The translations under genes and the position numbers were made by a program. DNA of 64,000 nucleotides from Bdellovibrionales bacterium (lineage in GTDB: Bacteria; Bdellovibrionota; Bdellovibrionia; Bdellovibrionales; Bdellovibrionaceae): contig JANMPT010000021.1 in the NCBI GenBank assembly GCA_031370005.1, positions 64,001 to 128,000 of the forward strand. The letters run 5' to 3'. Below, piece by piece: positions 31,953-58,523 of this stretch. Position 1 is the first letter of the stretch, and every line of letters begins with the position of its first letter. The notes below the pieces were generated by a model. It did not search any database and was not told the origin of the DNA. It saw nothing but the letters and a program-made list of their open reading frames with translations.

Positions 31953-31967
31953 TTGGAGGAAAAGTAT

Positions 31968-32681: not shown

Positions 32682-32715
32682 GCTTTAGAAGTTAATCTCG
32701 GCGAGGAGAGTATTT

Positions 32716-33264: not shown

Positions 33265-33267
33265 TTT

Positions 33268-33765: not shown

Positions 33766-33778
33766 TCGGAGAAACTTT

Positions 33779-37495: not shown

Positions 37496-37577
37496 AAATT
37501 AGTTTGAATATTTTAATTTGTATTGAACCAAATAAAGTCGCTCTGCTGTAATTCCGAAGACTTGTGTGGAGGAGCAA

Positions 37578-37820
37578 TTGAAAACATTAATCGTAGGATT
37601 AATTGTTGTCTTGGGATTTGTTACTAGTGCAGAGGCAAAGTCAAAAATTACTCGCAAAGTCCAAGAGGTTAATTTTGGTGAAATGAACCTCAAAGGTACG
37701 ATTCGAAATCCCGACGGAGCCTATCTTGTGCAAAAAAAAGGTATTAAGTTTTTACCTTTGTATGACATTCAAAAAGATATGGACGGCCGCATTCGTGAAT
37801 CTAGCCTTTATTTAAGATAG
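37578..37820 (+). CDS. Small secreted GltF-like protein
   Basis: GGAGG SD then TTG 37578, signal peptide, and 'VNFGEMNLKG.IRNPDG.Y' resembling GltF. Lies between the GltD-like and GltG-like genes. Confidence 0.7.
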   Translation: MKTLIVGLIVVLGFVTSAEAKSKITRKVQEVNFGEMNLKGTIRNPDGAYLVQKKGIKFLPLYDIQKDMDGRIRESSLYLR

Positions 37821-37857
37821 TAAGAGATTACTTGAGATATGACTTTACGGGGTACGT

Positions 37858-39321
37858 ATGAACAACGCTTTAATTGTAAAACAACGTCTGAAAAATGGAA
37901 CTACCAAGACTTGGAAGCTTCGTTCTACTCAGTCTATTTACACCTTTGGTGGTTCTAGACTCGCCGACGTAATCTCTATCTCCCCTACTTCTCAAGGTAT
38001 GCATGGGACTTTTGAATGTCACGATGGCAAGTGGTGCTATATTGACATGAACATGAATAACATCATGTTCGGTCAAGATTGCCGTATTCCTCTAGAAACT
38101 GAAAAAACACTTGAGATAGACGACTCAACTTTATACATAACCCCTGTACACAAAGAGGCTGATCTTTACCAAAGGCTCGAAAAGAATTCTCATGAAAACA
38201 ACGGTCATAAAAAACCGTATCAACTCTTTCTTGTTAAGCTCCATGATAAAGTGATTGAAACTCGCGTCTTGCCAATGGGCCAAAGTTTTATTCCAGAAAT
38301 GGCTATCACAAAAAAAGTTATTCCAGCAAAAGACTCTAGCTCTTGGATTCAATACACTTTAGATCAATATCTTGTTCGCCAAAAAACAGTGTATCTTACA
38401 TCTGAAGAAGCAATGACTCGCCTTACGGCAAGCCAGTTTGTCGATAAAGATACTAAAAAAGGTCTTTTAATTCTACTTATGGCCGCATTTATGATTGGCG
38501 GCCTCTCTTTGATGGCTCCAAAACAAGAACAAGTTGCTAATGTTGTTATTCCTCCACCAGCGCAAAAAGTAATTGTTAAACTCGATCATACAAAAAAAAT
38601 CAAAGTCGCTGAAGCTGTTAAACCAGCCCCGTCCCAACTACCTCCACAAGCCCATAAAGAAATACAAAAAACAGTTAGTGGACCTGTTGGCTCTAGCAAA
38701 GTCGCAAATATGTTAAAAGCTGTTGCAGACCCACGGATTTCGCGTCTAATCGGAAAAGTTTCTGCACAAGCTGCCAAAAGTGGCAATGTAATCATCTCTA
38801 ATGGCATTAAAGCCGGCTCAGGTGCCAGCGGTCGTTCACTTGCAGCAGTTGGTAACATAGATCGTTCTGGTCGTGATTATGGAACAGACTCCACAGCTCA
38901 AGGCGTAATGATTTCAACAGCTGGACGAGGCGGTGGTAAAAACACGTCTGGCATAGGTGGCCTTGGTGCGGGTAACACTGGTAATGGTGGAGTGGGCTTG
39001 ATCGAAGAAGAAAGTGAAGTTGTTGGTGGTTTAGATCGTGAAGTGATCGCTCAATATATCAAATCACAACTTGGTCAAATTTTATATTGCTATGAAAGAC
39101 AACTCAGCGCCAATCCAGATCTCTTTGGTAAGGTCGCCGTCAAGTTTACGATTGCTGGGACCGGACAGGTTGAGACCCAAACTATTGGGGATACAACACT
39201 TAAAAATGCGACCGTTGAGGGATGCATTTTGAATAAAGTTGCAAAATGGAAGTTCCCAGCCCCGGCAGGAGGAACAAAAGTGCTCGTCACTTATCCATTC
39301 TTATTTAAGAGCACAAACTAA
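37858..39321 (+). CDS. GltG/AgmX-like protein (degenerate FHA, TM, Gly-rich linker, TonB_C-like domain)
   Basis: C-terminal GLDREVI...YCYERQL..GKV.VKFTI...CI...WKFP.P.GG..V.YPF (AgmX/PglI C-terminal type) and a central TM. Confidence 0.85.
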   Translation: MNNALIVKQRLKNGTTKTWKLRSTQSIYTFGGSRLADVISISPTSQGMHGTFECHDGKWCYIDMNMNNIMFGQDCRIPLETEKTLEIDDSTLYITPVHKEADLYQRLEKNSHENNGHKKPYQLFLVKLHDKVIETRVLPMGQSFIPEMAITKKVIPAKDSSSWIQYTLDQYLVRQKTVYLTSEEAMTRLTASQFVDKDTKKGLLILLMAAFMIGGLSLMAPKQEQVANVVIPPPAQKVIVKLDHTKKIKVAEAVKPAPSQLPPQAHKEIQKTVSGPVGSSKVANMLKAVADPRISRLIGKVSAQAAKSGNVIISNGIKAGSGASGRSLAAVGNIDRSGRDYGTDSTAQGVMISTAGRGGGKNTSGIGGLGAGNTGNGGVGLIEEESEVVGGLDREVIAQYIKSQLGQILYCYERQLSANPDLFGKVAVKFTIAGTGQVETQTIGDTTLKNATVEGCILNKVAKWKFPAPAGGTKVLVTYPFLFKSTN

Positions 39322-39339
39322 TACGGAGGCACAGAAATA

Positions 39340-40089
39340 ATGAAAACTCTCATACTCACGTTGATGCTTTTAGGGAGTTCCTTTGCACACGCACAAACAC
39401 CCCCGCCGGCCACCGGTGGAAACGATAAGCTTGACATTAAAAAATTAGAACAAAAATATTGGTCCGCAAAAGACGATGATTTTGCTGTCGTTCAAAATAG
39501 ACGCTATACAAAGGCAAAAAGATTTTTCTTAAGCGGTAATTTTGGAGTTCCATTCAATGATCCTTTTAGTTCTGGAAATATTTTTGGCGTAACTTTTGGT
39601 TACTTCTTCAATGAACGCTGGGGTTTTGATATAGACTATAAAACCGCAAACCTACACGACAACGATGCGACATCCCAGTTCATCAACCAGTATGGAACAT
39701 ATCCAGACCATAATATTTTTAAGTCATCACAAATCATATCTGTAACTCTGGTCCCATTTTACGCAAAAATGAGTTTCATGGACACTTCTATTATCTATTT
39801 CGATATGGGCCTCTCTGTCGGCGCTGGAACTTTGGGATATTCCATTCAAAGAGGCGATGGCAACCAGGAAGAAACAACAGCAGTTGCAAAGCTGTCCGTA
39901 TTTCAACAAATTTTCTTTTCTGAGCACTTTGCATTACGAGCTGATCTTTCCAATACCTGGTCAAATCAAAAGCGTATGAAATACTATCTTCCAGGAGATT
40001 CGTCACATGGATACACTGGGGTTCGAGATTTAGGAACAAAAATGATCAATGATACATCACTGTTATTGGGTGTTACTTATTGGTTCTAA
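39340..40089 (+). CDS. Outer membrane beta-barrel, GltA/GltB/GltH-like
   Basis: Signal peptide, AVVQNRRY.K, NDPF, PFYAKMS, alternating beta strands and terminal YWF. Confidence 0.8.
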   Translation: MKTLILTLMLLGSSFAHAQTPPPATGGNDKLDIKKLEQKYWSAKDDDFAVVQNRRYTKAKRFFLSGNFGVPFNDPFSSGNIFGVTFGYFFNERWGFDIDYKTANLHDNDATSQFINQYGTYPDHNIFKSSQIISVTLVPFYAKMSFMDTSIIYFDMGLSVGAGTLGYSIQRGDGNQEETTAVAKLSVFQQIFFSEHFALRADLSNTWSNQKRMKYYLPGDSSHGYTGVRDLGTKMINDTSLLLGVTYWF

Positions 40090-40120
40090 GTATTGATTCT
40101 AAGTAATATTAGGGAGACGT

Positions 40121-42196
40121 ATGAAAAAAAATAAAATGGTACTTGCTTCACTTATTGTAAGTGTGTCTGCAGGGACTGCGCACGCACAAAAAGCAAAAAC
40201 CTATATGAAAAGCAGTAACGTCCCTGCGTACAAGTTTGTTCAAAACAAAAAGAAAGTCACGGAAATTCCTCGTCTTAATATTGACTCTGAAAAAGAAGTT
40301 CAGGCTAATATTAAAGCTTTGCAAATAACAGAGGCCGGAAAACTGAATTTAAACCCGATCGCAAAAAAGCAGTCTCCTCCTGTGTTGCAAGTCTCCATGG
40401 ATTTAATGAAGCCTCTTCCTATTGCTGGTGTTAAATCAGTAACAAGCAATAATGCTATCCAAAACATTCCTGATTTGAAAACCATCGACGAAGCTACTGA
40501 GCCTAACTTAGAAGTGGTAGAGACAAAGTCGCAACTCATTCCCCTTGAAAAAATGAAGCCGAATGACTATAAAATGCTTCAGGCTCTAATTTTTTTGGAA
40601 TACCAAAAAAATTATGAATTGGCGCTTGGACTCTTCTCTGAATTAATGGAAGACCCTGAGTACCGTACAGAGGCTTGGTATAACTATGCTCTGACAGCAA
40701 AAGGCCTTGGTATTAACTCTGAATTCCGAATGGGTATGATTAATGTAACGACTGAAACAAAAAGCAAAGAATGGCAGGAAAAAGCAGTTCGTCAGCTGGT
40801 TGATAATATTAATATCTTAAAAGTATCTGATATTAAATATATAGACCCTCTGATTACAAAGTATGAAATCGATACGACTCAAAACGAAGCCTATCAAATG
40901 TACCGAGCAAAATACTATTTGGAAGCTGGCCAACTGGATCAGGTTGAAGATGCCTTGCTTTTCATTAGTGAAAAATCAATCAACTATCCTGAAGCTACTA
41001 TGATCAATGCACTTTCCTTGTACCGCCAAGGCAAAGTTGATGATGCGATCATTACTTTAAACAAACTAATGGAGCTAACGGACGGAGATAAAAAAGGAAG
41101 CATTCATAACGTTGGGGCTTTAACTCTTGGTCGAATGTATTTTCAAAAAGGTGCCTATAAAGATTCTTTTCAAGCATATTTGAAGGTTGAAAAATCAAAT
41201 CCTATGTGGTTACAGGCAATGACAGAACAGGCCTGGACACAAATTATGGCTGAAGACTATGAAGGTGCCGCAGGAAATATGTTTTCACTTCATACAGATT
41301 TCTTTAAAAATGCATTTGCACCTGAATCCTACACTGTGCGCACCGTGGGTTACCTGAACCTCTGCCAATATGGTGATGGTATTCAGGTTTTAAGTGAGAT
41401 GAAAAAGAAGTTTGCACCATTAAAAGGGCGACTTGCTAGCTATCAAGAGGCTAATGACAAAAACCCAATTCACTATTATGAAACAATTAAAGCCTGGATG
41501 AAAAATGTCGATCGCAAAGAAGTCGATGGATTGCCTCGTCCCTTTATAGTAGAAATGGCCCGCCACCCATCTTTTACAGTCCCTCAAACAGAAATAAATA
41601 CTACTGAAGACGAAATTACACGTTTTAACAGGGTCACTTTAACCTTGCTACAGCGAGAAAAAGCAGTAATGAAAAAAGCCAGCGAAGCTGGTAAAGAAAT
41701 CAGTGAAATCCGAAAAAAACTTATCGACGACAAAAAATCGTCCTTACTTCAAGAGAGCTTAGCTAAAGCAGAGAAGCGCAAAATGAGTTTTAAAATTCAA
41801 CAGTTTATTGCTCAAAAAGCACGTACATCTATCAAAAAACTTCGCGAAATGGGTGTCGCACGTATGGAGAAAGAAAAGAACGAGCTTCGTGAACAGGCAG
41901 GCACAGCCTTGAAAAACCGCATGACTCAACTTGCCGGCAACTTAAATCGTGTCCTTGAGCAAAATGAAGTCCTTGCTTATGAATTGTACTCCGGAGCTGG
42001 TGAACACATCCGTTACCAAATGGCCGGTGGTAATATCACTGAAAAAGAACGCCCGGAATTAAAGGTAGAAGCAGGAAAAAGCTTGAACTGGAAATTCCAA
42101 GGTGAAATCTGGGAGGATGAAGTAGGCCACTACCGATCATCACTGAAAAATGTTTGTCCGCAAGAGGACAAGATTACTAGCTTAGATAATAATTAA
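40121..42196 (+). CDS. TPR protein, GltC-like
   Basis: Signal peptide, TPRs (LTLGRMYFQ, EQAW, PE...Y.NLC) and C-terminal W.FQGEIWEDEVGHY...NVC. Confidence 0.75.
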   Translation: MKKNKMVLASLIVSVSAGTAHAQKAKTYMKSSNVPAYKFVQNKKKVTEIPRLNIDSEKEVQANIKALQITEAGKLNLNPIAKKQSPPVLQVSMDLMKPLPIAGVKSVTSNNAIQNIPDLKTIDEATEPNLEVVETKSQLIPLEKMKPNDYKMLQALIFLEYQKNYELALGLFSELMEDPEYRTEAWYNYALTAKGLGINSEFRMGMINVTTETKSKEWQEKAVRQLVDNINILKVSDIKYIDPLITKYEIDTTQNEAYQMYRAKYYLEAGQLDQVEDALLFISEKSINYPEATMINALSLYRQGKVDDAIITLNKLMELTDGDKKGSIHNVGALTLGRMYFQKGAYKDSFQAYLKVEKSNPMWLQAMTEQAWTQIMAEDYEGAAGNMFSLHTDFFKNAFAPESYTVRTVGYLNLCQYGDGIQVLSEMKKKFAPLKGRLASYQEANDKNPIHYYETIKAWMKNVDRKEVDGLPRPFIVEMARHPSFTVPQTEINTTEDEITRFNRVTLTLLQREKAVMKKASEAGKEISEIRKKLIDDKKSSLLQESLAKAEKRKMSFKIQQFIAQKARTSIKKLREMGVARMEKEKNELREQAGTALKNRMTQLAGNLNRVLEQNEVLAYELYSGAGEHIRYQMAGGNITEKERPELKVEAGKSLNWKFQGEIWEDEVGHYRSSLKNVCPQEDKITSLDNN

Positions 42197-42212
42197 TTAT
42201 AAGGAGACGACC

Positions 42213-42881
42213 ATGAAGAACGTACAGAACTCTAAAAAAATGCTCGCGAGCTTCCTCATTGGTAGCTCTTTTCTAATTAGCTCAGTCGTGTTTGCTGAAA
42301 CGACAGCAAAAGCAGGACTTGAGAAAATTAAAAATAATGTCACCAACTCTAAAGCAAACCTGGGTGAATACCAAAAAAATCTTAAAACTGTAGTCAAAAA
42401 TATCGGCGAAATTCAAAAAGCAAAATCACAGGTAGATGATCAGAGAAAAACTGTATTATCGCAATATGAAGAAAATAAAAAATCCATAACCAAGGTCGAT
42501 TCTCAAGAGAAAGAGCTCCGCGCTTTGATGGCAGAAGAAAAAAATAAAAAAGCACTTGAAGAAAAGAAACTTCAAGAACTTCAGGCAGTAATGAGCAAGC
42601 TCCAAGACAACATCACAAAACGAGATGCAAATCTAACAGACTACGAAACACAAATGAGTTCAATTCAAGAAGAAAAAAAAATATGGACTTCCCGAGGCGA
42701 ACAAATCAGACAACAAGGTGCTCTTGTTGACCAACGCAATCGCTCTTTAGCAGGCTCTGAGAACGATTGGAAAAACAAGAAAAAAGGTTATGAGGCCGAG
42801 GTTGGTCGTTGGTTCAAAGAAGTTGACCGCCAGCAGAAACTTCAAGACAATTATACTTCACTAACAGAAGTGAGAGACTAA
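42213..42881 (+). CDS. Secreted long coiled-coil protein
   Basis: AAGGAG SD, signal peptide and about 190 aa of K/E/Q-rich heptads. Confidence 0.75.
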   Translation: MKNVQNSKKMLASFLIGSSFLISSVVFAETTAKAGLEKIKNNVTNSKANLGEYQKNLKTVVKNIGEIQKAKSQVDDQRKTVLSQYEENKKSITKVDSQEKELRALMAEEKNKKALEEKKLQELQAVMSKLQDNITKRDANLTDYETQMSSIQEEKKIWTSRGEQIRQQGALVDQRNRSLAGSENDWKNKKKGYEAEVGRWFKEVDRQQKLQDNYTSLTEVRD

Positions 42882-46443: not shown

Positions 46444-47710
46444 GTTTTTTTATATTTTTTTTCTTTATCCATTCGCCTATATAATTCTGCAGGCACTTCA
46501 AGTCTTCATGGGTAAAAAAAACAAGCAGTTAGTGACATATAAAAATAATAACTTTTTCGAAGTAAGAAATCAAAGCTCTCAGTGGATTAGTTTGAAACGC
46601 CCCTTTTGGATTCATGCTGCCAGTGGCGAGGTCGAGTACGCTAGACCCATCATTCGTGAACTAAAAAATACTTATCCAGAGATTCCCATCATAGTTACTT
46701 TCTCATCTCCTTCAGCAAAAAAAATTATCATGGGAATTGCCGATATCGAGGCCTGGGGAATTCTTCCCTGGGACTTTGAAGAGTCTTGCCTTTCATTTTT
46801 AGAAAAATGGCAACCTCGCTGTTGCTTAATTGCCCGCACTGATGTGTGGCCTGTAATGGCCTCCTGCTGTCATAAAAAGCAAATCCCGAGCCTTTTGTTT
46901 TCAGCCACTTTTGCAACAAATAGCTCTCGACTGAAGGGCCTTTCTGCAAAGGTTACTCGCTGGGCCCTAAACAATCTTTCTGAAATTCACTGCGTTTCTA
47001 CTGAGGACGCCATTCAATTGGAGCAGCTCAAGTTACAAGTACCCGTTCATGTTCATGGTGATAGCCGTTTTGATCAGGTCTTTTATCGCTTGCAGCACCC
47101 CAAATGTATTAAGAAAGAGCTTCGCCCCAGTCAAAATGATAAAATTTTAGTGGCAGGATCAACATGGCCTGAAGACGAAAAAGTACTTCTACCTGCCTAT
47201 TCCAATATGAAAAATAATTGCAAACTGATCTTAGCTCCCCATGAAATTCACGAATCCCATATGAAGCTCTTGGAAAATCAGTTAAAAATTTTAGACCTTA
47301 GTTTCTGTAAATACTCCGCAGCAACTTCTTGGACAACCGAAAATGTTTTGATTATTGATCAGATCGGCATTCTTGCAGAGCTTTACACCTGGGGAACTTT
47401 CGCTTTTGTGGGTGGCTCTTTCCGTAAACAAGTCCACAGCGTTATGGAACCGCTTGCGGCAGGTCTTCCGGTCCTAGTGGGACCTTATCATCATAATAAC
47501 CGCGAGGCCCTATTGTTTAAGGAAAAATCTGTCAATGGCCAAAGAGTGGTGACTGAAGTCATCGACGAAGAGGGCCTGGCCGCGCAACTTGCAATTTTTC
47601 TCAAGAAGCTAGCTCCTTCATTTTCTAAATCGCTTGTTTACGAACTTGAACAACATCTCCGCTCCAGCCACAGCGTACTAGAGTGGTGTACACGGAAAAT
47701 TGATGAGTAA
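46436..47710 (+). CDS. waaA: Kdo transferase
   Basis: WIHAASGEVE, GDSRFD, AGSTW.ED, APH, GILAELY, FVGGSF and EP. Confidence 0.93.
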   Translation: MIKFFYIFFLYPFAYIILQALQVFMGKKNKQLVTYKNNNFFEVRNQSSQWISLKRPFWIHAASGEVEYARPIIRELKNTYPEIPIIVTFSSPSAKKIIMGIADIEAWGILPWDFEESCLSFLEKWQPRCCLIARTDVWPVMASCCHKKQIPSLLFSATFATNSSRLKGLSAKVTRWALNNLSEIHCVSTEDAIQLEQLKLQVPVHVHGDSRFDQVFYRLQHPKCIKKELRPSQNDKILVAGSTWPEDEKVLLPAYSNMKNNCKLILAPHEIHESHMKLLENQLKILDLSFCKYSAATSWTTENVLIIDQIGILAELYTWGTFAFVGGSFRKQVHSVMEPLAAGLPVLVGPYHHNNREALLFKEKSVNGQRVVTEVIDEEGLAAQLAIFLKKLAPSFSKSLVYELEQHLRSSHSVLEWCTRKIDE

Positions 47711-49196
47711 AACATCCAAGGAGCAAATTATAGCTGAACTGGATGTTTTGACTAAACAAGGTCAAAAGCAGCATGTGCTTAAAGAACTCATAAAAATATT
47801 AAAGAACTCACCCCCAAAGCCCTTACTCCCTCAATTGGCTCGATTGGCTAATCGTAACCATGCCTATGTGTTGGCACTTAGAATCCTGCATCCCCTGATT
47901 CGCGACGATCGAGAACAAATATCTGAAGCTAGCCCAGAGGTCTTGAATATTTATGCCACCTCTTTGATGTGGATAGGTGCACTTGAGGAATCCCATCAGT
48001 GTCTGCAAAGAATAAAATTATCCACGGAAGCACTGCTAACAGGCGCCTTTATTCATTTTGCACGATGGAACTATCATAATGCTATTCCGCTCCTAATAAA
48101 ATATGTCAATTCGTCTCAAATCGACAATTATCAAAAGCTTGTGGGACAAATTAATTTGCTTGCCGCCTTCGTCGCAACTGGAAATCTAAAGCAAGCAAGG
48201 TCTATTTTAGAAACACTATTGAGTGTCTTCAGTGAAAACCCAAGTTACAAACTTCTGCTGGGTAATTGTCTGGAATTAAGAGCTCAAATTGAAATTCTCG
48301 AAAATTCCTACGACAAAGCACTCCTTTCTTTAACTGAAGCCGAAAGATCATTGGCAGACCAACCAGGGCGCTATCTCCTGTATGTCAACAAATGGCGCTC
48401 AATTGCACAACTTGGATTGTCACCACAAGATTCTGAGGCACATAGTGCCTTAGCACAAGTTAAACAAGACGCTTTAAAACTGAGAAATTGGGAAACTCTC
48501 AGAGATTGCGATTTTCACCTGGCTAGACTGACACAAAATAACACGCTTTTGCAGCGGATTCTTTTAGGCACACCCTACCAGGGATATCATGACCGGATTC
48601 AATCCACTTTTGGAATCACGGTGACTGAGTCCCGAAACTTGGAATACTGTCCTGGTGATGTGCTTGCAAAGCCACGCCTAATCGGCTTGGATCTTGACAG
48701 TATTTCTGAAAACTCTTTATTGAATTCAACTTCTTGGCCATTACTTCAGCTAATAACACGAGATATCTACCGGCCACCACGCATGGGAGTAGTTTTTTCA
48801 GAACTATATAAAAATGAGTATTTCAACCCTTTTACCTCACCCCAAAGAGTTCGAAATAGTGTTTTCCGATTTAATGAGTGGGCTAAAGACCATACAAATA
48901 GCTTTCACATCAAGATCAGCCAAGGTGACTTCCTTCTAATGGCCCCTATAGGCCTTAGCGTTTCATCCACACGACGTGAGCGCCCATTAGACAGTTGGCA
49001 AGCCGCACTCAAGTTTTTTAAGTTACAAAATAACTCGCGAAGCTTTACCAGTTCTGACTTGGCAAAAGTGCTGGGAATAACTCAACGAAGCGCTTTGAAC
49101 ATTCTCAAAAAAGCGTTGGCCTCACGAAAAGTACAAAAAATTAATCGCGGTAAAAATTGCCGCTATATTTTCTTTTCTGGAAGACGAACTGGCTAG
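47703..49196 (+). CDS. TPR-like helical protein with C-terminal winged-helix domain(s), putative regulator
   Basis: Helical repeats in the N-terminal ~300 aa and a C-terminal 'FTSSDLAKVLGITQRSALNILK...KINRGKNCRY' wHTH. No signal peptide. Confidence 0.6.
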   Translation: MSKTSKEQIIAELDVLTKQGQKQHVLKELIKILKNSPPKPLLPQLARLANRNHAYVLALRILHPLIRDDREQISEASPEVLNIYATSLMWIGALEESHQCLQRIKLSTEALLTGAFIHFARWNYHNAIPLLIKYVNSSQIDNYQKLVGQINLLAAFVATGNLKQARSILETLLSVFSENPSYKLLLGNCLELRAQIEILENSYDKALLSLTEAERSLADQPGRYLLYVNKWRSIAQLGLSPQDSEAHSALAQVKQDALKLRNWETLRDCDFHLARLTQNNTLLQRILLGTPYQGYHDRIQSTFGITVTESRNLEYCPGDVLAKPRLIGLDLDSISENSLLNSTSWPLLQLITRDIYRPPRMGVVFSELYKNEYFNPFTSPQRVRNSVFRFNEWAKDHTNSFHIKISQGDFLLMAPIGLSVSSTRRERPLDSWQAALKFFKLQNNSRSFTSSDLAKVLGITQRSALNILKKALASRKVQKINRGKNCRYIFFSGRRTG

Positions 49197-49197
49197 C

Positions 49198-51324
49198 TTA
49201 TTTCAGATCAAATGAAAAGATTCTAAAAATACCATCTGATGCTGGTCCAGCCAGAATCACTCGATTCTTATCTGCTGATACATCAATTTTCCATGGCCCC
49301 TTATCAGTGGGATTTAGTTTAAGTGGAGGGCGCCCATCAATGGGCACAAAGACTACTTCCTTTGACGGCTGGTTGTTGCCATCATTAAGTGCTAAACCGA
49401 AACCAATATTTGTTGATTTTAAATCAGGAACAGAAGAGTGCACACTAGGAAATTCATTGATTCTCAAGCACTCGCTTTCACTTTTAACATAATAAAATCG
49501 ATAAAGTTTCAATAGACTATCATAAGTAAAGAGATAAATCCTTTGATCAGGCAAGGCGCCGACAAATAGTTTTTTGCCAAGCACTCCTTCACATAATACC
49601 CTTGTAGACTTCGTAGTTAAGTTTATTTGGTATAGTGATGGGCTCTGGGGATCCCCACCGAAACCATATAGCCATTGATTGTCTATCAAGACAATTTTTG
49701 AAGGAAATTGCATTGCAGAAAAATTATTTGAAGCACTATCGTAACCAAGCCGCGGATCGATCGAAACACTTAAAAGATCCCCTGTCTCTGTATTATAAGC
49801 CATTGGATTTTTGGATGATGAAACTGCATCCCCAAGCAGGATCCATTTACGGTCATCAGAAATCCAAAGCAAAAACTTATTCTTCGCAATCTGTTTAACA
49901 CTTCCATCGGAAAGAGATACTAAAACGGTATCAATGGTATCATCACATGTAGAAGAAATTAAAACAGACTGTTCCGAATTGAAAGTCTCTAAAGAAAATC
50001 TTAAGTCCGTGCAGGAAGATAAAATATCGATTGGAAGATCCGTCATCGACCTTGTCGCTACATCATAGATTTTAAATTTTTTAAAATCTCCATTATTCAG
50101 TGGACCAATTATTACTTTGTTTGAATTAGCTAAAGTTTTATAGACAACCCTGCTAAGGGAACTAAAAATATCAATTAAATTATTAGATTGAATATCAAAA
50201 TCATGCAAAATCATTAATTGCGAAGAGATATTGGTTTCTTCATAAATCAAATGCTGATTCTGTGTCACTTCGGGTCTGTCTAACATATAATTGGGCGAAG
50301 TCGCTCCAGCCTGAAGGTTGGTAAGTCTGGTCACACGGGCTTGTTTTGAATTAAAAACATACCATGAACTAAAGGTCTCCGAAAATGCGCGAGCACTAAA
50401 CACTCTCAAATTTTTATCGGCAATAGGAAAGTTTTCAAGTGATGAATAGTTATCACCAAGAATTGCCTTAGTAAAATCAGTGACTGAGTTATCCAAGCCA
50501 ATTTTATAGGTATGTGTAACAAAAGGCGCCAAGTCAACTGGGAAGAAAATTTCTCCACTTCCAAAAATATCAAAAGTCGACGTAGATAAATCCGACAATT
50601 GGCGTAGTGACCAATTAGAGGTATCCAGCGATCCCCCAATTACACACGTAAGATTGTGGGACTTCATACCTGACAAACTAGTAGATTCGATACGTCCTGC
50701 GAATTTTTTATGAAGCATTGCAGGCTTCGACAAATCCACCTTAAATTTAATTTTGTCAGAAACATATTCAACTTCATTTGGCGATAATATGCGCCCAGTT
50801 GGAAAATCACTTTCAATGCTTTGTGGAAAATACACACGAGTTCGAACTTCATTTGTGTCTCTATCATAATGCGACACAATTTCAAAACTAGGACTTTCAA
50901 AATCATCTCGGCATAGGACTTCTGCAAGATTGCTAGGGATGCCCTGCGGTTTTATTTCGTAGCGTTTAAAAAGTGCGTCATTGACAGAAATAAATTCATT
51001 TTGAAAAGGGGAAATATTGATATCTGAGACCGAGATAGGCGTACTCTGCTTGGAACACTGAGTGCTTTTATTTTCATAAATATAAGCTTGGCCATTTTTA
51101 ATTTCTGCAACTTGATCTGGAGCAGGACTTCCCTCGCAAGTGTAGTTTGGAATAAACCGATAGTAGGCGCCATCAATCTTTCCCTCATAACCGCCGCCAT
51201 TTCCAGAATTTTTTGATGAAATATTGAATTGCTCTGGGATTGAATAATTCAAGCCACAACCCTGGTAACCCAACAGCATAAAAGCCAGAGCTAAAAAATG
51301 AAACAAACGTTTGAATCTTCTCAT
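49198..51324 (-). CDS. Large lipoprotein with a probable C-terminal beta-propeller
   Basis: Signal with YQGC lipobox, GNGGGYEGK motif, paired Cys, and TolB-like blades (VTRLTNL, WISDDRKWILL, VSADKNRVIL). Confidence 0.65.
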   Translation of the reverse strand: MRRFKRLFHFLALAFMLLGYQGCGLNYSIPEQFNISSKNSGNGGGYEGKIDGAYYRFIPNYTCEGSPAPDQVAEIKNGQAYIYENKSTQCSKQSTPISVSDINISPFQNEFISVNDALFKRYEIKPQGIPSNLAEVLCRDDFESPSFEIVSHYDRDTNEVRTRVYFPQSIESDFPTGRILSPNEVEYVSDKIKFKVDLSKPAMLHKKFAGRIESTSLSGMKSHNLTCVIGGSLDTSNWSLRQLSDLSTSTFDIFGSGEIFFPVDLAPFVTHTYKIGLDNSVTDFTKAILGDNYSSLENFPIADKNLRVFSARAFSETFSSWYVFNSKQARVTRLTNLQAGATSPNYMLDRPEVTQNQHLIYEETNISSQLMILHDFDIQSNNLIDIFSSLSRVVYKTLANSNKVIIGPLNNGDFKKFKIYDVATRSMTDLPIDILSSCTDLRFSLETFNSEQSVLISSTCDDTIDTVLVSLSDGSVKQIAKNKFLLWISDDRKWILLGDAVSSSKNPMAYNTETGDLLSVSIDPRLGYDSASNNFSAMQFPSKIVLIDNQWLYGFGGDPQSPSLYQINLTTKSTRVLCEGVLGKKLFVGALPDQRIYLFTYDSLLKLYRFYYVKSESECLRINEFPSVHSSVPDLKSTNIGFGLALNDGNNQPSKEVVFVPIDGRPPLKLNPTDKGPWKIDVSADKNRVILAGPASDGIFRIFSFDLK

Positions 51325-51541
51325 TTATTTTATGATATCCCCATCTCTCAATTATACCTGGGTCTTATAGAATCGAGTTGTTTTCCTTTAAAATTAAAAA
51401 ACAATGTCTTACTTTGAGATACTTAAGCTAAGCCATTGAAATGACCTGAGGTCTAACCTGTTTCCAGAATTTTTTGAAATTTCATAAGCGGGCTCCATTG
51501 TTTTATTCTAAATGCATCAACAAAACTTCGAGGAGGAATAA

Positions 51542-52246
51542 ATGGAAAAACAAATTTTTAATGATCGAAATAAAAATAAGCAGCCAGAACAGAGTAAAAT
51601 AGAAAAGGTCGATATCGCCTACTCATCGGAACCTTGGTGGTATGATATACGAGGATTTTTAATCCTTACTTTCTCATATCGCAGCACCTTGCCAGCGCAA
51701 ATCCATTTATTTGGTACAGGCATTGGCCCTAAGCATCTTGAGGCTGCAATCGGCACTGGCACTCTTTTTGATTTGATTTTAAAATGGCGCAAGTGGAAAA
51801 AACTTCCAACTATTGACGTGCTAGGATTTGACTATGCCGAGCGCATGCTAGCTGGGGCAAGAAAACGTTTTGCAAAAGAAAAACAGATCAAATTATTACG
51901 AGCAGATGCCGCTCACCTTGATCTGACAAATAACTCCTTCGATACAGTCAATATAGCCAATGCCATTCATTGCCTACCAGAGGTTGAATCCAGCCTCAGC
52001 GAAATGTATCGAGTTCTAAAGCCAGGAGGACTTTTGCTTGGAAACTGTCTGCTAGAACCAAAAGCAAATAGCTTTTGGGACCGCCTTTCCCGCAAAATTA
52101 ATAACTGGGGAATGAAAAAAGGGATTCTCTATCGTCCGTATATGGAGGACGAAATTATCGAATTACTACTCAAGGTAGGTTTTGAAATAAAATTTCGGCA
52201 AGTCAGCGGCAACTGTTTTAATTTTATCATGCAGAAACCATTTTGA
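51542..52246 (+). CDS. Class I SAM-dependent methyltransferase
   Basis: GAGGAGG SD, LEAAIGTG, GFD..ERML, ADA..L...SFD and RVLKPGG. Confidence 0.88.
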   Translation: MEKQIFNDRNKNKQPEQSKIEKVDIAYSSEPWWYDIRGFLILTFSYRSTLPAQIHLFGTGIGPKHLEAAIGTGTLFDLILKWRKWKKLPTIDVLGFDYAERMLAGARKRFAKEKQIKLLRADAAHLDLTNNSFDTVNIANAIHCLPEVESSLSEMYRVLKPGGLLLGNCLLEPKANSFWDRLSRKINNWGMKKGILYRPYMEDEIIELLLKVGFEIKFRQVSGNCFNFIMQKPF

Positions 52247-52253
52247 AAATTAA

Positions 52254-52296
52254 GTCACGAATGAACTGAATCTAAATTGTTCAGCTCACTCGTGAC
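52254..52296 (-). terminator. 17-bp stem hairpin between convergent genes, probable intrinsic terminator
   Basis: Arms GTCACGAATGAACTGAA and TTCAGCTCACTCGTGAC pair 15/17 around a 9-nt loop. Both mismatches become G-U on the minus-strand RNA, which continues UUAAUUUUC. Confidence 0.6.
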
Positions 52297-52303
52297 GAGC
52301 ATA

Positions 52304-52897
52304 TTATGCTTGCGGATGATAGTCTTTACTTGAAGGTTTTGACGGTTTCACTTTTTCTTCTGAGCTCGTTGCTATATCTTTAGCTCCTCCGTCTTTTAAT
52401 ATCTCTTTGGCACTTTTCTGCAAATTAGAATCATCTACATGTACCGACAAGAGCATGCCGCCGTCTTTCATAAAGTCTTCATAGCGTTTGGCCTCATACT
52501 CAGGAATGCCAAAGCCGACCAATGCGCCTGTAATACCTCCAACAGTTCCACCGATTCCTGCGCCGGCAATTGCAGCAACGATAGGGCCTGCTGCCACAAA
52601 GGGGCCTAAACCTGGAATCGCTAGAGAACCAATTCCGACTAGCCAACCAAATATACCGCCAATGGCAAGTCCACTTGTAGCTCCTACTGTAGCTCCTTCG
52701 GGAGCTTTCGTCGACTTTTCATGAGCGAAGTTTCTTGTGCTTTCCGGAGTCGGCATTAGCACTGAGATATCGGTGCTATTAAACCCATTGGTCTTAAGGT
52801 TCTCAACCGTGGTTTCTAACGCCGATCTACTGTCAAAAATGCCAAATACCGCCTTGTGATTATGACCTTTTTCATGTTCATTTTTTTCAAATACCAT
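52304..52897 (-). CDS. General-stress-type membrane protein (DUF3341/YflT-like, glycine zipper)
   Basis: AAGGAGG SD, AVFGIF...L..GF...DISVL, Gly-zipper LAIPGLGP.VAAGP and GIPEYEAKRYE. Confidence 0.82.
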   Translation of the reverse strand: MVFEKNEHEKGHNHKAVFGIFDSRSALETTVENLKTNGFNSTDISVLMPTPESTRNFAHEKSTKAPEGATVGATSGLAIGGIFGWLVGIGSLAIPGLGPFVAAGPIVAAIAGAGIGGTVGGITGALVGFGIPEYEAKRYEDFMKDGGMLLSVHVDDSNLQKSAKEILKDGGAKDIATSSEEKVKPSKPSSKDYHPQA

Positions 52898-52961
52898 AGA
52901 ATCCTCCTTGTGATCATCGCCTCTAATGCAATGATGATTTAATTTCTAATGCTTACATTAT

Positions 52962-53141
52962 TCAATGACGATCTTTTTTTCGATTTTTGTCTTTTTTTGA
53001 TTTGTTCATTGTTGTTGCGAAAGAAATTTCTTTGGCATTATTTTCAGAGTTTCCCTGCTCTATCTCACTTTTTGCAGTATGTTTCTCCATTCTTTTTTCA
53101 TTGTTTGGCTGCTGTTCTCTTTTAGATTGTGTCTGTCTCAT
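52962..53141 (-). CDS. Small hydrophilic charged protein (59 aa)
   Basis: Strong AAGGAGGT SD before ATG 53141, same strand and directly upstream of the stress protein gene. No recognisable domain. Confidence 0.5.
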   Translation of the reverse strand: MRQTQSKREQQPNNEKRMEKHTAKSEIEQGNSENNAKEISFATTMNKSKKDKNRKKDRH

Positions 53142-53435
53142 AACCACCTCCTTGGCAGTGCAAATATAAGATCAGTAATACTAAAAAAATACACTTCAGT
53201 TTTGCGGAAAAAACTTGGAACTTTTCTTCTTATCTGACAATGACAAATTACCCGCCTATTCGTCACTGTCTCAAAACAAGGCATAGCACACTCTAACTGT
53301 TTGCCTAATCACAGGTGTTAAGCCAAAAACGTCACAACCTCTTTAAATCAAGCATAAAGTTCTAGTCCCTTTGCCTACTTAAGCCATTTTTTCGTAGCAC
53401 GATCTTTGAACTTACTTGCTTTTGAGAAAGGTAAT

Positions 53436-54551
53436 ATGAAAAAAATAAAATTTACGCCATTTTTATTTATATTGTTCCTGGGGCTTCTTCACCTTTGTTG
53501 TGCCTCCTTATCTTTTGCGGGGCCAACCGATGCTTCATGGAAAATGGGGCTTGCTGGTATCGATGCCCAAGACACACAAGCCTCAAGTAAATTTGTGGGT
53601 TTCATGTTTGACGCGAAAATGAAATACTGGCTTCACCCAGAACTTTTTATGAATCTCGATCCTAATATTAAATTTGAAAATGGCAGCTTCCAATCAATTG
53701 ACGGCGAACGTAAAAATGAAAGCGGCCTCTACCTGAAAGAAGCCGGAATACATTGGCTCTTTACAAAGAACTCCTTCCTTTCTGGCGGAGCCCTCCATCA
53801 GGGGACAAATCACTCAGAGCTTTTGATAGGCGATCAAGCCTTTCCCGCTGTACGCGGTGAGCTAGAAATTGCAAATACTGGCAATCTTAAAACTCTTCTA
53901 GATATTGAACAAGCCATCCCAACTTCAAGCTCCTTAAGTACTAACACCACTGGCGTTGAATCCACACCAAGATTCTTAAGTGCCTCCATGGCTGTTAATT
54001 TCGAAAATAATAATTACTTTTGGAAAACCCGACTCGGAGTCTTTAGCTATGACAATTTGCCAAGTGCCGTGGCATACCAAAGTGCACTTCGTGGCAATAC
54101 TGTTTTGTCACTCACAGAAAATGAGTCTTTATTTGTTTATCAGTACCAAGGGGTCGAAGTCATGACTTCCTTGCGCTTACCAATAACGCACGGTTGGGAC
54201 TTGATGAGCTCTGCTTCTTACTTGCAAAACAGCAAGGCAAGCAGTGATCTCAATCAAGCATATGCCATTAGCGCTGGTTCTGAATTCTTTCTTGTTGGAA
54301 GAAAAAGTATTGATGTCAAACTCACAAGCTTTCGAATTGAACCTGATGCCGCAATTGCATACTTTAATACGGGAAAATACTTCAATACGAATCGTATTGG
54401 CTACAATATAGAATCATTTGTTTATTTAAATAAATATAAGTTCAAAATCGGCTTGGGCTATACTGAGGCGGAAGTTATTTATCTAAACCCAGCTCAAAGT
54501 CGCGAAAAAAGTCTAATGCTCATGCTGGAGACCTTTTATGCCAATATCTAA
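53436..54551 (+). CDS. Uncharacterised outer membrane beta-barrel protein
   Basis: GAAAGG SD, signal peptide (SFA|G) and alternating amphipathic strands with aromatic ends throughout. Overlaps the next gene by 14 bp. Confidence 0.7.
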   Translation: MKKIKFTPFLFILFLGLLHLCCASLSFAGPTDASWKMGLAGIDAQDTQASSKFVGFMFDAKMKYWLHPELFMNLDPNIKFENGSFQSIDGERKNESGLYLKEAGIHWLFTKNSFLSGGALHQGTNHSELLIGDQAFPAVRGELEIANTGNLKTLLDIEQAIPTSSSLSTNTTGVESTPRFLSASMAVNFENNNYFWKTRLGVFSYDNLPSAVAYQSALRGNTVLSLTENESLFVYQYQGVEVMTSLRLPITHGWDLMSSASYLQNSKASSDLNQAYAISAGSEFFLVGRKSIDVKLTSFRIEPDAAIAYFNTGKYFNTNRIGYNIESFVYLNKYKFKIGLGYTEAEVIYLNPAQSREKSLMLMLETFYANI

Positions 54552-57500
54552 GCAGCTATTACTCATGTTGTTATGCATAAATTTACTGGGACTCACAGCT
54601 TGCAATATCCCAAATCCCAAATCAAGGGAAACAGAGGGTCATTCAGTGGCCACTTTCTTCGTCACCGAGGCAAAGGGTGATGCTCTGGCTGCAAAACTAA
54701 ATAAAGACTATTCAATTCCTCAAAGTAAAACCTTCAACTTCACAGCTTGCATAAAAGACCATGCACAATCAAAGCCTCTCATTGGCCATCCCTTCCGCAT
54801 CGGGCCAATCAATAAAGAAGTTAAGAGCGATGAAAAAGGCTGCTTAAATTGGAGTGAAGAGGTTTCTTTTAATTTCTTTTCAGAGCCTAAATATTTGGAT
54901 TGGAAACGTCAAATCACTGCCACTGGACTACACAAAGGAACTCGCATTGTTCGCTTTGCTATCAATCCCTGGAGTGACAATGATAAATCTCCGGCAGTTG
55001 TGAATCTTGAAACTGTGACTCCTCCACAGCTGGTCAGTGACTTTGAAAAAATTCAGGAAACATTGCAAGGCTCCTCAGCGGGTGCCCATGTATCCAAAAA
55101 TTCGTTATGGGTAAATGATATGCGAATTCAGAGTAATGAGCAAAAATTTACTCAAAATGGAGTTGTCCTGAATCTTGAATTGATGGCTATTCCCCAATTG
55201 CAAGTCTCAACTATTAACGGTGAAAAAATACTCCGTCCACTCACACAAGGACGCTTTAAAGCAAAAATATATCTGATTCACACACTGGTTGAGGACAACA
55301 AAGAAGTCCATCGTATCTTGTCTCAATCTATTCCACAAACAGCAGCAATACATGGTGGAAATTTGTTTATAAAATCACTTATAAAACTCACCTCCATTCC
55401 AACTCGTGGCCAATTGGTATTGGGCCTTGATATCTCCGCAGAGGATAACAATGCAAATATTGGAAACTTCCAAGGCATTTACATGATGGGTGATTATGAT
55501 CAACTCAAAAGCTCTGGTTTCTTGAGATTGATGAGCGTTGTAACAGAGAGCAATGAATTTAAAATATCAAACTTTATCAATTCAAAACTTGAAGACAAGC
55601 TTTCAGAGAACTCCCTAAACAAAGACGCGTACGTGAAACCACGCATTGAAATAGCACCTTTAGAATTTAAATATATCCGCGTAGGAAAAGAAACCACCTC
55701 AGAAAGAGAAATTATTTATAACGTCAAAGCATGTATTAAAAATGGTCTCGAGCAAAAAACTACTCGAGGTTATACTTTTAATGTACAGGGTTTTCGTCAA
55801 AACGTTCGTCAAAACGATAGTGACGCAATAAAAACAACAAAAATTACCACAGATAACTCATCATGTATTAACTGGGATGAGGCAATGACATTTAAGTACT
55901 ACGAATGTCAAAAGTATATCAAAGGCTTTATCGAAATCGAAAACAAGGATCTTGCACTGAAACAAAAAATCGAAGTCGCCATCAATCCATGGGAATCTTG
56001 GGGGACTTTTGCCCGTGACCTCAGATATGTCGATAGCCAGGAACGTCTTCTTACAGACTGTAAAAAGGAAAATGTCCTGCCTTCAACTGTCTCCCTGAAA
56101 AACCTGAGCTACTCGACTCTTTCCTATAATTATGAAATCGATAATCTCTTAAACTTGACCTTTAAAAAGAAACTCCGTCTTAAGCTCGACGCTACCGTGA
56201 GCCTCTTTAGCGATATGGCCAGAGGGCGTATGCAGAGTGCCCAGAAGCTCCGTCCAGGGATTTATTTGCTTAAATTGGCATTAATTAAAAATCGCGACTA
56301 CTACAATCAAAATTCCTATGTCAGCTCAGTAGAAAAACTCGTAGCCACCTTGGATGGGGACATCAAAACCGATGTCGAGTTTAAAACATCTGATTTAAAA
56401 GCCATTGGGGACCGCAATACCTTATTAGTTGAGCTAGATCCTGTTAATGAGGACAAAATAACTGTAGATAAAGATGGTAACGTTTCTGTCAAAGAAAAAG
56501 TGAGCTCCCTAGATGAGATCATCAATCACAACACAGGCTTATATAACCGAACCTTTAGTACAGCAATAAATTTGAATACAGATAGAGACACTCAAGAGCT
56601 TACAGCAATGGAGACCACAGAAGCCAATCAGTACTTAGTCAACGCGAATTTGCCAAAACTTGATGAGGCCCGCAAGTCATTAATCCGTGAGTATATTAAA
56701 TACGGTGAAAGACTTGCTTTTCAAAACTTTCAAGCTCAAAAAGCTCAAGCAGATATGAAACTTTTTGCAAAAAATAATTCATTAAAACAAATTTCAGCGA
56801 GCGAAAATAGCGACTCCGTGGATATGCGCACTATCTTAGCAACGTCCCAGACTCATGTCAGCGAAACACAAATGAAAAAGAATCTAATGCAACTTTCAAC
56901 AAGCGGTAAAATCAACACAGAATTAAGCGAAGATCTTTGTTCCTATTGGTTCGAAAGCCTTATAGCTAAGGATCTCTGGGGCTCTTATGGTAAATTTGCA
57001 CTTCTGATTTGTAGCGTAAATGGAAAACATCCCGAGCTTCTTTTTAATATCGAAAAGCGTCTTTTTATAAAAGAACTTGAAAGCTATAACTATTTAAAGG
57101 GCTATAATTCGGTGATCTCTGTTGGTAATAATATCACTTTAACAAAATCACTTGCTCATTCAAATTATGTTACAAAATCTTTAAGCTTCAGCATGGGGCT
57201 CTTAAAAAAATTCGCAGATGTCTTCTCCATTGGGGTTTCGGGCAGCTATACAATTTCCCAATCTGATTCGAAGGCCGAAACAAGCGCTAACAGTATCTCT
57301 GTGAGCATGAACACCTCATTGCTGATGCAACAAAATATCTATCAATTAAAGCTCAGACGTTACCAAGAATGCAGTATTGTCAGGATAAAACCGAAGCTTT
57401 TCATAAAAGGCGGTTTTTTTGCATCCGCACTTAATTCAAGGCTTTCTGAAAACGAAAAAGCTGAAGTGGTTTCCCGTGGTCTTATGATTTGCACGGGTAC

Positions 57501-57789
57501 AGATAATATGACTCCCCTGCTACGAAATGAAAATTATTATTTATTAGCCCAGGATACAGCCAATGCCCAAATGCAAGATAATGGTGATGCTAGAAATCGC
57601 AATTTTTTCATCGCCCTTCGTGGTGAAAAAGAATATCAACGCCTGATGTATTTCATGAAAGGCCGGATTAAAATGCCAGAAGCTGCCGATCACTCTGCTG
57701 ATGAGAAAAATAATAGTTTTACAAATCTGGACAGGCTCCTTAGCTCAGGATCTGCAAATGTTCCAGGCAGCTATAACGACAGCCCGTAA
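54538..57789 (+). CDS. Uncharacterised 1083-aa lipoprotein
   Basis: LTAC lipobox, a duplicated ACIK...C.NW.E...KY...AINPW domain and a Ser/Thr-rich amphipathic segment near the C-terminus. Confidence 0.8.
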   Translation: MPISKQLLLMLLCINLLGLTACNIPNPKSRETEGHSVATFFVTEAKGDALAAKLNKDYSIPQSKTFNFTACIKDHAQSKPLIGHPFRIGPINKEVKSDEKGCLNWSEEVSFNFFSEPKYLDWKRQITATGLHKGTRIVRFAINPWSDNDKSPAVVNLETVTPPQLVSDFEKIQETLQGSSAGAHVSKNSLWVNDMRIQSNEQKFTQNGVVLNLELMAIPQLQVSTINGEKILRPLTQGRFKAKIYLIHTLVEDNKEVHRILSQSIPQTAAIHGGNLFIKSLIKLTSIPTRGQLVLGLDISAEDNNANIGNFQGIYMMGDYDQLKSSGFLRLMSVVTESNEFKISNFINSKLEDKLSENSLNKDAYVKPRIEIAPLEFKYIRVGKETTSEREIIYNVKACIKNGLEQKTTRGYTFNVQGFRQNVRQNDSDAIKTTKITTDNSSCINWDEAMTFKYYECQKYIKGFIEIENKDLALKQKIEVAINPWESWGTFARDLRYVDSQERLLTDCKKENVLPSTVSLKNLSYSTLSYNYEIDNLLNLTFKKKLRLKLDATVSLFSDMARGRMQSAQKLRPGIYLLKLALIKNRDYYNQNSYVSSVEKLVATLDGDIKTDVEFKTSDLKAIGDRNTLLVELDPVNEDKITVDKDGNVSVKEKVSSLDEIINHNTGLYNRTFSTAINLNTDRDTQELTAMETTEANQYLVNANLPKLDEARKSLIREYIKYGERLAFQNFQAQKAQADMKLFAKNNSLKQISASENSDSVDMRTILATSQTHVSETQMKKNLMQLSTSGKINTELSEDLCSYWFESLIAKDLWGSYGKFALLICSVNGKHPELLFNIEKRLFIKELESYNYLKGYNSVISVGNNITLTKSLAHSNYVTKSLSFSMGLLKKFADVFSIGVSGSYTISQSDSKAETSANSISVSMNTSLLMQQNIYQLKLRRYQECSIVRIKPKLFIKGGFFASALNSRLSENEKAEVVSRGLMICTGTDNMTPLLRNENYYLLAQDTANAQMQDNGDARNRNFFIALRGEKEYQRLMYFMKGRIKMPEAADHSADEKNNSFTNLDRLLSSGSANVPGSYNDSP

Positions 57790-58523
57790 ACTTTTTTTAG
57801 GAAATCTAAACTGCGAATGCCAAACCACGAGTAAGATTCGCCGTCCACGACGGCCCCCTGCAAACCATCTCTGCGCAGGTCTCCTATTTTTTTATGAAAA
57901 GGGTATGGTTCTGATGAATATAAAATAAGAGCCTCTTGGAAATCTTGAATTTTTATAACTGGATACTTCTCCTCCGGAAAGTTTATAACTTGTGCGCCCA
58001 ACTGTTTGAGTACAGAACCAATATAAGTTTCGCGATTAATTGCCATCCAGGGCTTACTCCAAATCACATAAAGCACTGGTCGTCTTTGCCTTGGGCTTGG
58101 GCGCACCGGTGGAATCACCCACTCCATCAATGCAGGTATATTTTCTTCATTCCAAAACAAGGGACCGCGATCAATTATTGCCTGCATTTCCAACGACCAT
58201 GCAATTAATCGTTGATTGCCCAACTCCGTACCGAGACGTTGCAATTCAAATTGCAAGCTCTCCAGAGAATACACATCTGTGGCCAAATAAGGGCATGGAC
58301 ATTCCTCTGCCATCTTTAAGGGGTTTTCCTCTTTATCCAGCAATACCAAGTCAGGATTGAGGGCTTTGACTACCTCCCATTGAGACTCCTTGGTACCGCC
58401 CACCACAGGGATACATTTAACAAGTTCAGCGGGATGAACACAAAAACGCGTTCTTCCTACAACGGGAATTCCAGCTCGCAATAAAGTCTCCGTCCACGAG
58501 GGCACCATCGATACAATTCGCAT
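57771..58523 (-). CDS. Helical-backbone metal receptor (BtuF/cobalamin-binding-like), no signal peptide
   Basis: MRIVSMVPS.TETL, GRTRFC.HP, VGGTK, LNPDL...EEN, SSEPYPF and VDGE..SWFG.R. Confidence 0.82.
   Translation of the reverse strand: MRIVSMVPSWTETLLRAGIPVVGRTRFCVHPAELVKCIPVVGGTKESQWEVVKALNPDLVLLDKEENPLKMAEECPCPYLATDVYSLESLQFELQRLGTELGNQRLIAWSLEMQAIIDRGPLFWNEENIPALMEWVIPPVRPSPRQRRPVLYVIWSKPWMAINRETYIGSVLKQLGAQVINFPEEKYPVIKIQDFQEALILYSSEPYPFHKKIGDLRRDGLQGAVVDGESYSWFGIRSLDFLKKVYGLSL

Follow-up and report, generated by a model that had tools for sequence, protein, structure and literature searches.

Outer-membrane β-barrels whose genes are paired with those of lipoproteins are known from Slam and its substrates, SusC/D and MtrB/MtrC. 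Pore-formers of Gram-negative bacteria that act on bacteria have also been described; the gene of one, BSAP-1 of Bacteroidales (a MACPF protein), adjoins an outer-membrane protein gene, and the cholesterol-dependent cytolysin-like (CDCL) proteins are two-component (excerpts of PMC11169675). The locus analyzed here lies in a window of 64,000 nucleotides, the whole stretch of DNA that was studied, from a Bdellovibrionales bacterium (contig JANMPT010000021.1). On the + strand of the window, an open reading frame (ORF) for a predicted outer-membrane β-barrel (53436-54551, 371 amino acids from the ATG) is followed by an ORF for a lipoprotein of 1083 amino acids (54538-57789), and the stop of the first gene overlaps the start of the second by 14 bp. 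The C-terminal part of the lipoprotein shares with aerolysin-type toxins (epsilon toxin, natterin, monalysin and LSL) and with C2II, Vip1 and Vip4 a long hairpin, an alternating tip and Ser/Thr-rich arms.

The reading that we tentatively prefer, as a serious candidate that still falls short of probable, is that the pair is an accessory, barrel-displayed, surface-tethered β-pore-former acting on prey membranes. The parts resemble known kinds, and their coupled arrangement is undescribed in the literature as far as our searches reach. According to an excerpted preprint, the macromolecular complexes present where Bdellovibrio contacts and enters its prey are still unidentified (bioRxiv 2022.06.13.496000). 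The family is large and unannotated and has orthologs in the genetically tractable strain HD100 (Bd2381 and Bd2382), and it is directly testable. If the preferred reading is true, the pair would represent a tethered β-hairpin pore-former directed against bacteria, together with a new route of lipoprotein display that is based on a barrel.

Coupling and distribution of the two genes

Both genes were found in 66 of 201 genomes in a first pass across the phylum Bdellovibrionota and neither in 122, while seven genomes had the barrel only and six the hairpin only. Deeper profiles recovered the missing partner in four of these 13 discordant genomes (G241, G311, G212 and G297); another (G260) has part of a barrel gene where a contig ends, G217 has an adjoining lipoprotein with no detectable hairpin match, and G273 and G294 were left out of the retests. 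Within the order (151 genomes), the lipoprotein is present in 110 and the barrel in 108, and the lipoprotein profile collected 1,027 clusters at 50% identity (E≤0.001). The barrel lies directly upstream in 47 of 50 loci around lipoprotein matches (five are duplicates; two of the misses begin at contig ends). At 20 barrel loci outside the order, the lipoprotein is adjacent in 14, within a few kb in three and missing in three. The exact 14-bp overlap has an in-frame start codon in 71 of 80 adjacent pairs, against about 5% expected per in-frame position, so the coupling is not due to chance. In several families the locus stands among WaaF, KdtA and FabMG. Named homologs of both proteins are from Bdellovibrio or Pseudobdellovibrionaceae, and a plasmid collection, the only set searched outside the phylum, gave no match to the pair. 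The initial annotation had supposed a probably predatory host and had asked whether the pair is conserved and adjacent across the Bdellovibrionota; these results support a predatory host lineage and a tight linkage of the two genes in the phylum. The features of the locus are listed below in window coordinates.

53148..53435, + strand: upstream intergenic region, putative promoter, 288 bp; no consensus match above chance
53436..54551, + strand: outer-membrane β-barrel gene, 371 amino acids, ortholog of HD100 Bd2381; predicted to have 16 strands and a cleavable signal peptide
54538..54551, + strand: 14-bp stop/start overlap, kept in 71/80 pairs; translation of the two genes is probably coupled
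54538..57789, + strand: lipoprotein gene, 1083 amino acids, ortholog of HD100 CAE80201.1 (Bd2382)
54592..54603, + strand: lipobox LTAC, Cys22 invariant
54652..54987, + strand: immunoglobulin (Ig)-like domain 1 (Ig1), residues 39-150, conserved Cys71/Cys102
55090..56607, + strand: Ig-like domains 2-4, residues about 185-350, 369-486 and 516-690
56608..57027, + strand: helical region, residues about 691-830, variable in length between homologs
57013..57675, + strand: C-terminal module, residues 826-1046, invariant Cys945/Cys985; hairpin set between long strands 836-868 and 920-950
57115..57327, + strand: hairpin like that of β-pore toxins, residues 860-930; predicted local distance difference test (pLDDT) score <50 in the monomer model

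Each gene is single-copy in the 3.2-Mb genome of the window. A 61-amino-acid minus-strand ORF precedes the 288-bp gap upstream of the barrel gene, and a convergent Peripla_BP_2 gene (57771-58523) follows the lipoprotein gene. The two-gene unit with opposite-strand neighbors stands as first annotated, as does its lack of a recognizable family, neither protein reaching the cut-off of any Pfam, NCBIfam or PDB-sequence family. Of the promoter region of about 290 bp that had been assigned to the unit, the gap itself is present and is presumed from its position to be the promoter; a sigma-70 scan of it was not above chance, giving one site against 1.8 expected, and this lone site overlaps the start codon. 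RNA contigs of two studies (P1 and P6) share their first base, which is 17 nt upstream of the barrel start, and one from a third (P2) starts 38 nt further on; this is a weak hint of an operon start. One RNA run (X21) had no cover of the operon and another of the same study (X16) had cover; contigs cannot show level, and this difference was not used.

The lipoprotein and its toxin-like hairpin

The lipobox (L19-T20-A21-C22) conforms to the LTAC motif given in the initial annotation, and its cysteine is invariant in 81 of 81 aligned homologs. The C-terminal module is whole in 182 of 207 homologs. A profile of this module, built from 69 diverse homologs and run against 177,635 PDB sequences (E≤10), gave 20 matches, of which 18 are what we take to be β-pore toxins or binary-toxin pore components, the best being C2II (E 0.0026); the other two are Ser-rich mitoribosomal proteins. 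The 18 matches come from roughly a dozen different proteins, among them C2II, natterin-like, epsilon toxin, monalysin, LSL, SaroL-1, Cry23, Vip1 and Vip4, all aligned at profile positions 19-114, which correspond to the hairpin, and the toxin-like hairpin reported at first is upheld by these matches to the membrane hairpins of pore-formers. With a shallower profile of the full-length lipoprotein, 2ztb and monalysin ranked first. A word-limited search for a small standalone hairpin protein found none among 6,326 candidates.

The hairpin tip (882-904) consists of alternating hydrophobic residues, and its polar arms (869-881 and 905-919) have Ser at every second residue; Ser/Thr make up 26% of the hairpin and 12% of the rest of the module. 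In the monomer model, residues 866-923 have pLDDT <50 and lie between the long strands 836-868 and 920-950. The alternation is above that of shuffled sequences (z>0) in 55 of 69 homologs. A polar/hydrophobic alternation of this kind, found here at 882-904, is the trait of the aerolysin/ETX_MTX2 insertion loop. Excerpts of PMC3110756 describe the alternating loop as the best-kept feature of aerolysin-type toxins, give their core as five strands (β1-β2, loop, β3-β4-β5), and report that aerolysin profiles pick up anthrax protective antigen by way of its insertion loop, although the fold is different. Strands 836-868, 920-950, 981-1005 and 1024-1028 surround the loop in the model of the lipoprotein, compared with the five of the aerolysin core. 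Matches to aerolysin-type and binary-toxin B proteins cover the hairpin and adjacent strands only, and in the case of C2II only the hairpin aligns. Unlike in these toxins, the module here is the C terminus of a lipid-anchored Ig stalk, and its gene is coupled to that of a barrel.

Several results weigh against a pore-former, and further ones from expression, fitness and gene loss are given in the last section. The alternation reaches z>1.65 in only 15 of the 69 sequences, and only one PDB match has E<0.01. The hairpin stretch has a weak match to a serine-rich family (E 0.0075), and this family and the two Ser-rich PDB matches that are not toxins show composition to be a contributing factor. 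In the reciprocal direction, ETX_MTX2 (PF03318) matched the lipoprotein gene in none of five genomes at E≤10, in a loose scan that can miss weak matches; matches of Binary_toxB_2 (PF17475) in five genomes fall elsewhere and below the cut-off; and the 25 Pfam families listed, of 34 that matched among the 69 members, include no family of aerolysin, ETX or binary toxins. Because the reciprocal ETX_MTX2 and Binary_toxB_2 searches fail, membership in a toxin family is not claimed; judging from its sequence, the lipoprotein may work like β-pore toxins. The pair is also usually a single, vertically kept copy at a fixed locus, unlike typical fast-evolving toxins.

In the structural model of the lipoprotein (pLDDT 79.4, predicted template modeling score 0.59), four predicted Ig-like domains are followed by a helical region and the C-terminal module, and Ig3 is an internal repeat of Ig1 (hhalign 99.1%). 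In fold, the N-terminal two thirds match intimin, invasin, macroglobulins and MtrC in their Ig-like domains (Z 6-7.8), whose arrangement is a common one; MtrC and UndA are among the tied top matches (Z 7.3-7.8). Searches with the whole model (Foldseek PDB, VIA and a viral library) gave Ig-type matches, with Z≤7.8 or low TM scores. These searches were filled by the Ig domains and barely probed residues 690-1083, so the absence of a toxin fold from them is not evidence. An Atlas search gave scores <0.9, and Pfam and NCBIfam scans gave no sign of a periplasmic enzyme. Weak phosphoketolase matches (Pfam E 0.0046, NCBIfam E 0.0045) were below the cut-off and were judged to be due to chance.

The lipoprotein homologs range from about 700 amino acids (Ig1, Ig4 and hairpin) to 1,900, and paralogs of 680-810 amino acids that lack Ig2 and Ig3 keep the C-terminal module. 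A non-lytic adhesin or structural stalk, in which the barrel would show an Ig-repeat lipoprotein and the Ser/Thr-rich hairpin would serve self-assembly or binding, fits this range of stalk lengths, the Ig-like matches to intimin, invasin, macroglobulins and MtrC, the failed reciprocal toxin searches and the serine-rich family match. It is nevertheless unlikely in our judgment. The PDB is rich in Ser/Thr-rich β adhesins, of which there are none among the 20 profile matches against 18 pore toxins, and the hydrophobic alternation is limited to the tip, which has roughly the length of one membrane span.

Ig1 is present in the barrel-linked homologs. At two loci (genome G153; L116:11017-12754 and L117:10498-12136), the barrel is accompanied by an Ig1-only lipoprotein of about 175-180 amino acids, which may be a minimal docking unit or a remnant. 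In three genomes of family f5 that have no barrel, the lipoprotein homolog lacks Ig1-3 and the lipobox. Since Ig1-only partners stand beside barrels and Ig1 is gone from these barrel-less homologs, Ig1 is likely to be the barrel-facing or docking module. Barrel and Ig1 identities covary (Spearman 0.56, among kin that are not independent).

In all three f5 genomes (L113:3199-11835, L114:7711-16342 and L115:2971-11414), the barrel-less, lipobox-less hairpin homolog heads a run consisting of itself, a membrane fusion protein (MFP), AcrB, a signal-peptide gene in the TolC position that we take from its sequence to be TolC-like, and a FabMG-like gene. In three strongly reduced genomes of 1.3-1.5 Mb (G154, G157 and G165; L063-L066 and L092), the pair has one or two copies with lipoproteins of 1,730-1,875 amino acids; the lifestyle of these organisms may not be bacterial predation. 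In G029 (L056:2706-10640 and L057:2766-10514), two loci each have a barrel followed by two tandem lipoprotein paralogs, possibly a two-component pore.

The barrel protein

The first gene had been read as an outer-membrane β-barrel, and the confident AlphaFold model (pLDDT 87.6) supports this, with 16 long strands, the first starting at residue 31, right after a signal peptide of about residues 1-28. The model has the long outer loops and short periplasmic turns of a 16-stranded general porin. Its best structural matches are OmpM1 (Z 25.5, root-mean-square deviation 5.0, 300 residues aligned), OprB (Z 21.7) and OprP (Z 20.5), all 16-stranded porins. Identity to porins of this type is about 10%, and the barrel differs from OmpM1, OprB, OprP and Porin_5 proteins, which have the same fold, in its conserved loops and coupling to a lipoprotein. 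Porin_5 (PF16930) weakly matched three of 81 family members (best E 7.9e-5) and did not match the window barrel (P0001); the one score known for a family member is 20.9 bits, against a cut-off of 22. Atlas look-alikes of the barrel carry Porin_5. MtrB matched the barrel with a Z of only 11.0, and no haem motifs were noted in the pair. PopA (Bd0427), an outer-membrane barrel of the same predators (PMC12228718) encoded at a different locus in B. bacteriovorus, matched with Z 11.3 at rank 47.

Of 35 positions conserved in at least 70% of the family, 19 are in the long loops predicted to be extracellular, although these account for 32% of the barrel, and the periplasmic turns contain none, the topology being that of the AlphaFold model. 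Because outer loops are usually variable in ordinary porins and are conserved here, they suggest a docking surface or loops folded into the lumen. Exporters of the Slam, TpsB and SusC types have an N-terminal TPR, POTRA or plug domain; the barrel model has none of these, and no Pfam matches to them were found.

The same parts might instead build a CsgG-like channel in the outer membrane of the predator itself. The lipoprotein would oligomerize from the periplasm with the barrel as its assembly partner, insert its hairpins into that membrane and form an export or uptake conduit at entry. The fixed locus among the envelope genes WaaF, KdtA and FabMG, the usual single copy and the f5 homolog that heads an MFP-AcrB operon without a barrel are in its favor. 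The f5 operon has a further signal-peptide gene, presumably TolC, in the TolC position, however, and the hairpin is four Ig domains away from the lipid anchor, the barrel is conserved on the surface that is predicted to be extracellular, and the lipoprotein is dispensable. We regard such a channel as quite unlikely.

Expression, fitness and loss of the pair

HD100 CAE80201.1 (1098 amino acids) fits Bd2382 by length and neighbor order, and Bd2381 overlaps Bd2382 by 14 bp (PMC3627812 supplement 2). Excerpts of PMC2797640 place both genes among 240 predatosome genes that are not up in host-independent growth, and excerpts of its supplement give an induction at 30 min of 1.56/1.36-fold for Bd2381 and 1.60/1.36-fold for Bd2382. 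Of the expression data called for at the outset, these show a weak induction at prey entry, of 1.4-1.6-fold. PopA is up in host-independent growth and not at entry (PMC2797640 supplement).

These data also contain points on the other side. The induction is barely over the 1.3-fold cut-off (excerpt of PMC2797640), and RNA-seq is low in both attack and 3-h growth phase, with 1.3/2.7 and 19.4/9.5 reads per kilobase per million mapped reads, figures that come from partly labeled columns (PMC3627812 supplement 2). In transposon sequencing (Tn-seq) of strain 109J, both genes were neutral under four prey conditions, with fitness (W) of 1.05-1.21 when the barrel gene and 1.52-1.78 when the lipoprotein gene carried the insertions, the genes being assigned by order from 15 genes in register between two anchors (PMC6561027 file 5). 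Predation defects in that screen have W<0.1, and its library was host-independent; redundancy hides many predation genes according to its authors (excerpts of PMC6561027). The neutral result caps the importance of the pair, which would be accessory or redundant on standard prey. The initial annotation had suggested a prey-contact apparatus, and one that is core or essential is not supported: insertions are without cost whether V. cholerae or E. coli is the prey, the lipoprotein alone is lost in two of 22 genomes of the genus with the closest well-assembled relatives, and the pair is absent from two genus-mates of the window genome. A full-text literature search, with subscription journals and bioRxiv supplements outside its scope, found no paper on Bd2381 or Bd2382, and the supplements of PMC10769870 and PMC11870529 gave no matches to these genes.

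None of the 11 genomes of genus g3 has either gene, and the flanking genes adjoin in five of five examined. AnmK, which an excerpt of PMC11870529 reports only in epibiotic strains, is present in nine of 11 g3 genomes, none of 11 g10 and none of three g1, the predation lifestyle of the compared genomes being inferred from this marker only. Because the pair is missing from a genus with the epibiotic marker, a membrane-bridging role, as in epibiotic feeding junctions, which had also been suggested, is disfavored. DacB copy number did not separate g3 from the other genera. The pattern has exceptions: G053 has AnmK together with the pair, and the g3 loss represents one clade. Genus g10 keeps the pair in 20 of 22 genomes. 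Also unfavorable to the preferred reading, G003, G006 and G009 lack both genes, and G086 and G134 keep the barrel without a lipoprotein or Ig1 protein.

The solo barrels of G086 and G134 have a ratio of nonsynonymous to synonymous substitution rates (dN/dS) of about 0.03 and keep 18 of 19 conserved loop residues. As they are under purifying selection, the barrel is not only the exporter of the lipoprotein; either it has some role of its own in these genomes or the loss is recent. The initial annotation had named three findings that would speak against it, namely an ordinary porin unlinked to the lipoprotein, genes that do not co-occur, and a known periplasmic enzyme. None of these was obtained outright, although the barrel has a porin-like fold and stands without the lipoprotein in two genomes. 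Between the two solo barrels (L051:3185-4318 and L052:8118-9251), synonymous divergence is about 2.6, an approximate value near saturation, compared with 0.6-1.1 for four neighbors; recombination at this gene is possible.

An interference toxin against competing predators or grazers, similar to BSAP-1, would have the barrel of rival strains as its receptor, and the barrel encoded beside it would be the version of the producer, which it does not target. The retention of the barrel in barrel-only genomes, where it stands at the same locus and is under selection, the higher divergence of this barrel than of its neighbors, a loss that costs nothing in a one-strain screen (W >1) and the tandem lipoproteins of G029, which recall the two-component CDCL toxins (excerpts of PMC11169675), are what such a toxin would lead one to expect. 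However, the pair is not strain-patchy, being present in 20 of 22 g10 genomes, the exact overlap is conserved phylum-wide, the loops of both paired and solo barrels are conserved rather than diversified, the genes are induced at the time of prey entry and no immunity gene is evident. BSAP-1 and the CDCLs have MACPF/CDC folds and are strain-patchy, whereas the lipoprotein has a single long hairpin and no MACPF match, and a BSAP-type locus has a replaced receptor, whereas the solo barrels keep their conserved loop residues. This explanation seems improbable to us.

For a surface-tethered pore-former acting on prey, the following steps can be envisaged. Through Ig1, the lipoprotein would dock on the barrel or be exported by it, and the Ig stalk would hold the toxin-like hairpin away from the predator so that it reaches the prey. 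Hairpins of several lipoprotein copies would then insert into the prey membrane as a long β-barrel during entry, the pore serving as an accessory breach or channel. A broader proposal, which we think doubtful although worth stating, is that the pair represents a new class of cell-tethered antibacterial pore-former across the predatory phylum, with a swappable Ig1 docking module on a dedicated barrel. In that case a stalk whose length can be tuned (about 700-1,900 amino acids) would drive the β-barrel into the prey envelope at entry, and the pore would be a breach or a channel for predator enzymes. If true, this would provide a named, deletable gene pair with which to study the breaching of prey membranes by invasive predators.

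Other genes of the region and its relatives were also noted. A second barrel and helical-lipoprotein pair adjoins WaaF in five of five g3 genomes examined (L123:7328-11030) and is also present in the window genome (contig C23:29355-33318); as a homolog of the pair studied here it was ruled out (hhalign 0.1-9.4%). Between KdtA and the barrel gene, window positions 47700-53147 encode a TPR-HTH protein, a 708-amino-acid lipoprotein-like protein with no Pfam match, a probable methyltransferase, a YflT-like protein and the 61-amino-acid ORF. G086 and G134 have a single small gene in place of this block. Window positions 31953-42881 hold a MotA/TolQ-like gene, two ExbD-like genes, TPR proteins and a small barrel, which we take to be an Agl/Glt-type gliding or TonB-like cluster. 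A cluster resembling it stands just upstream of Bd2381.

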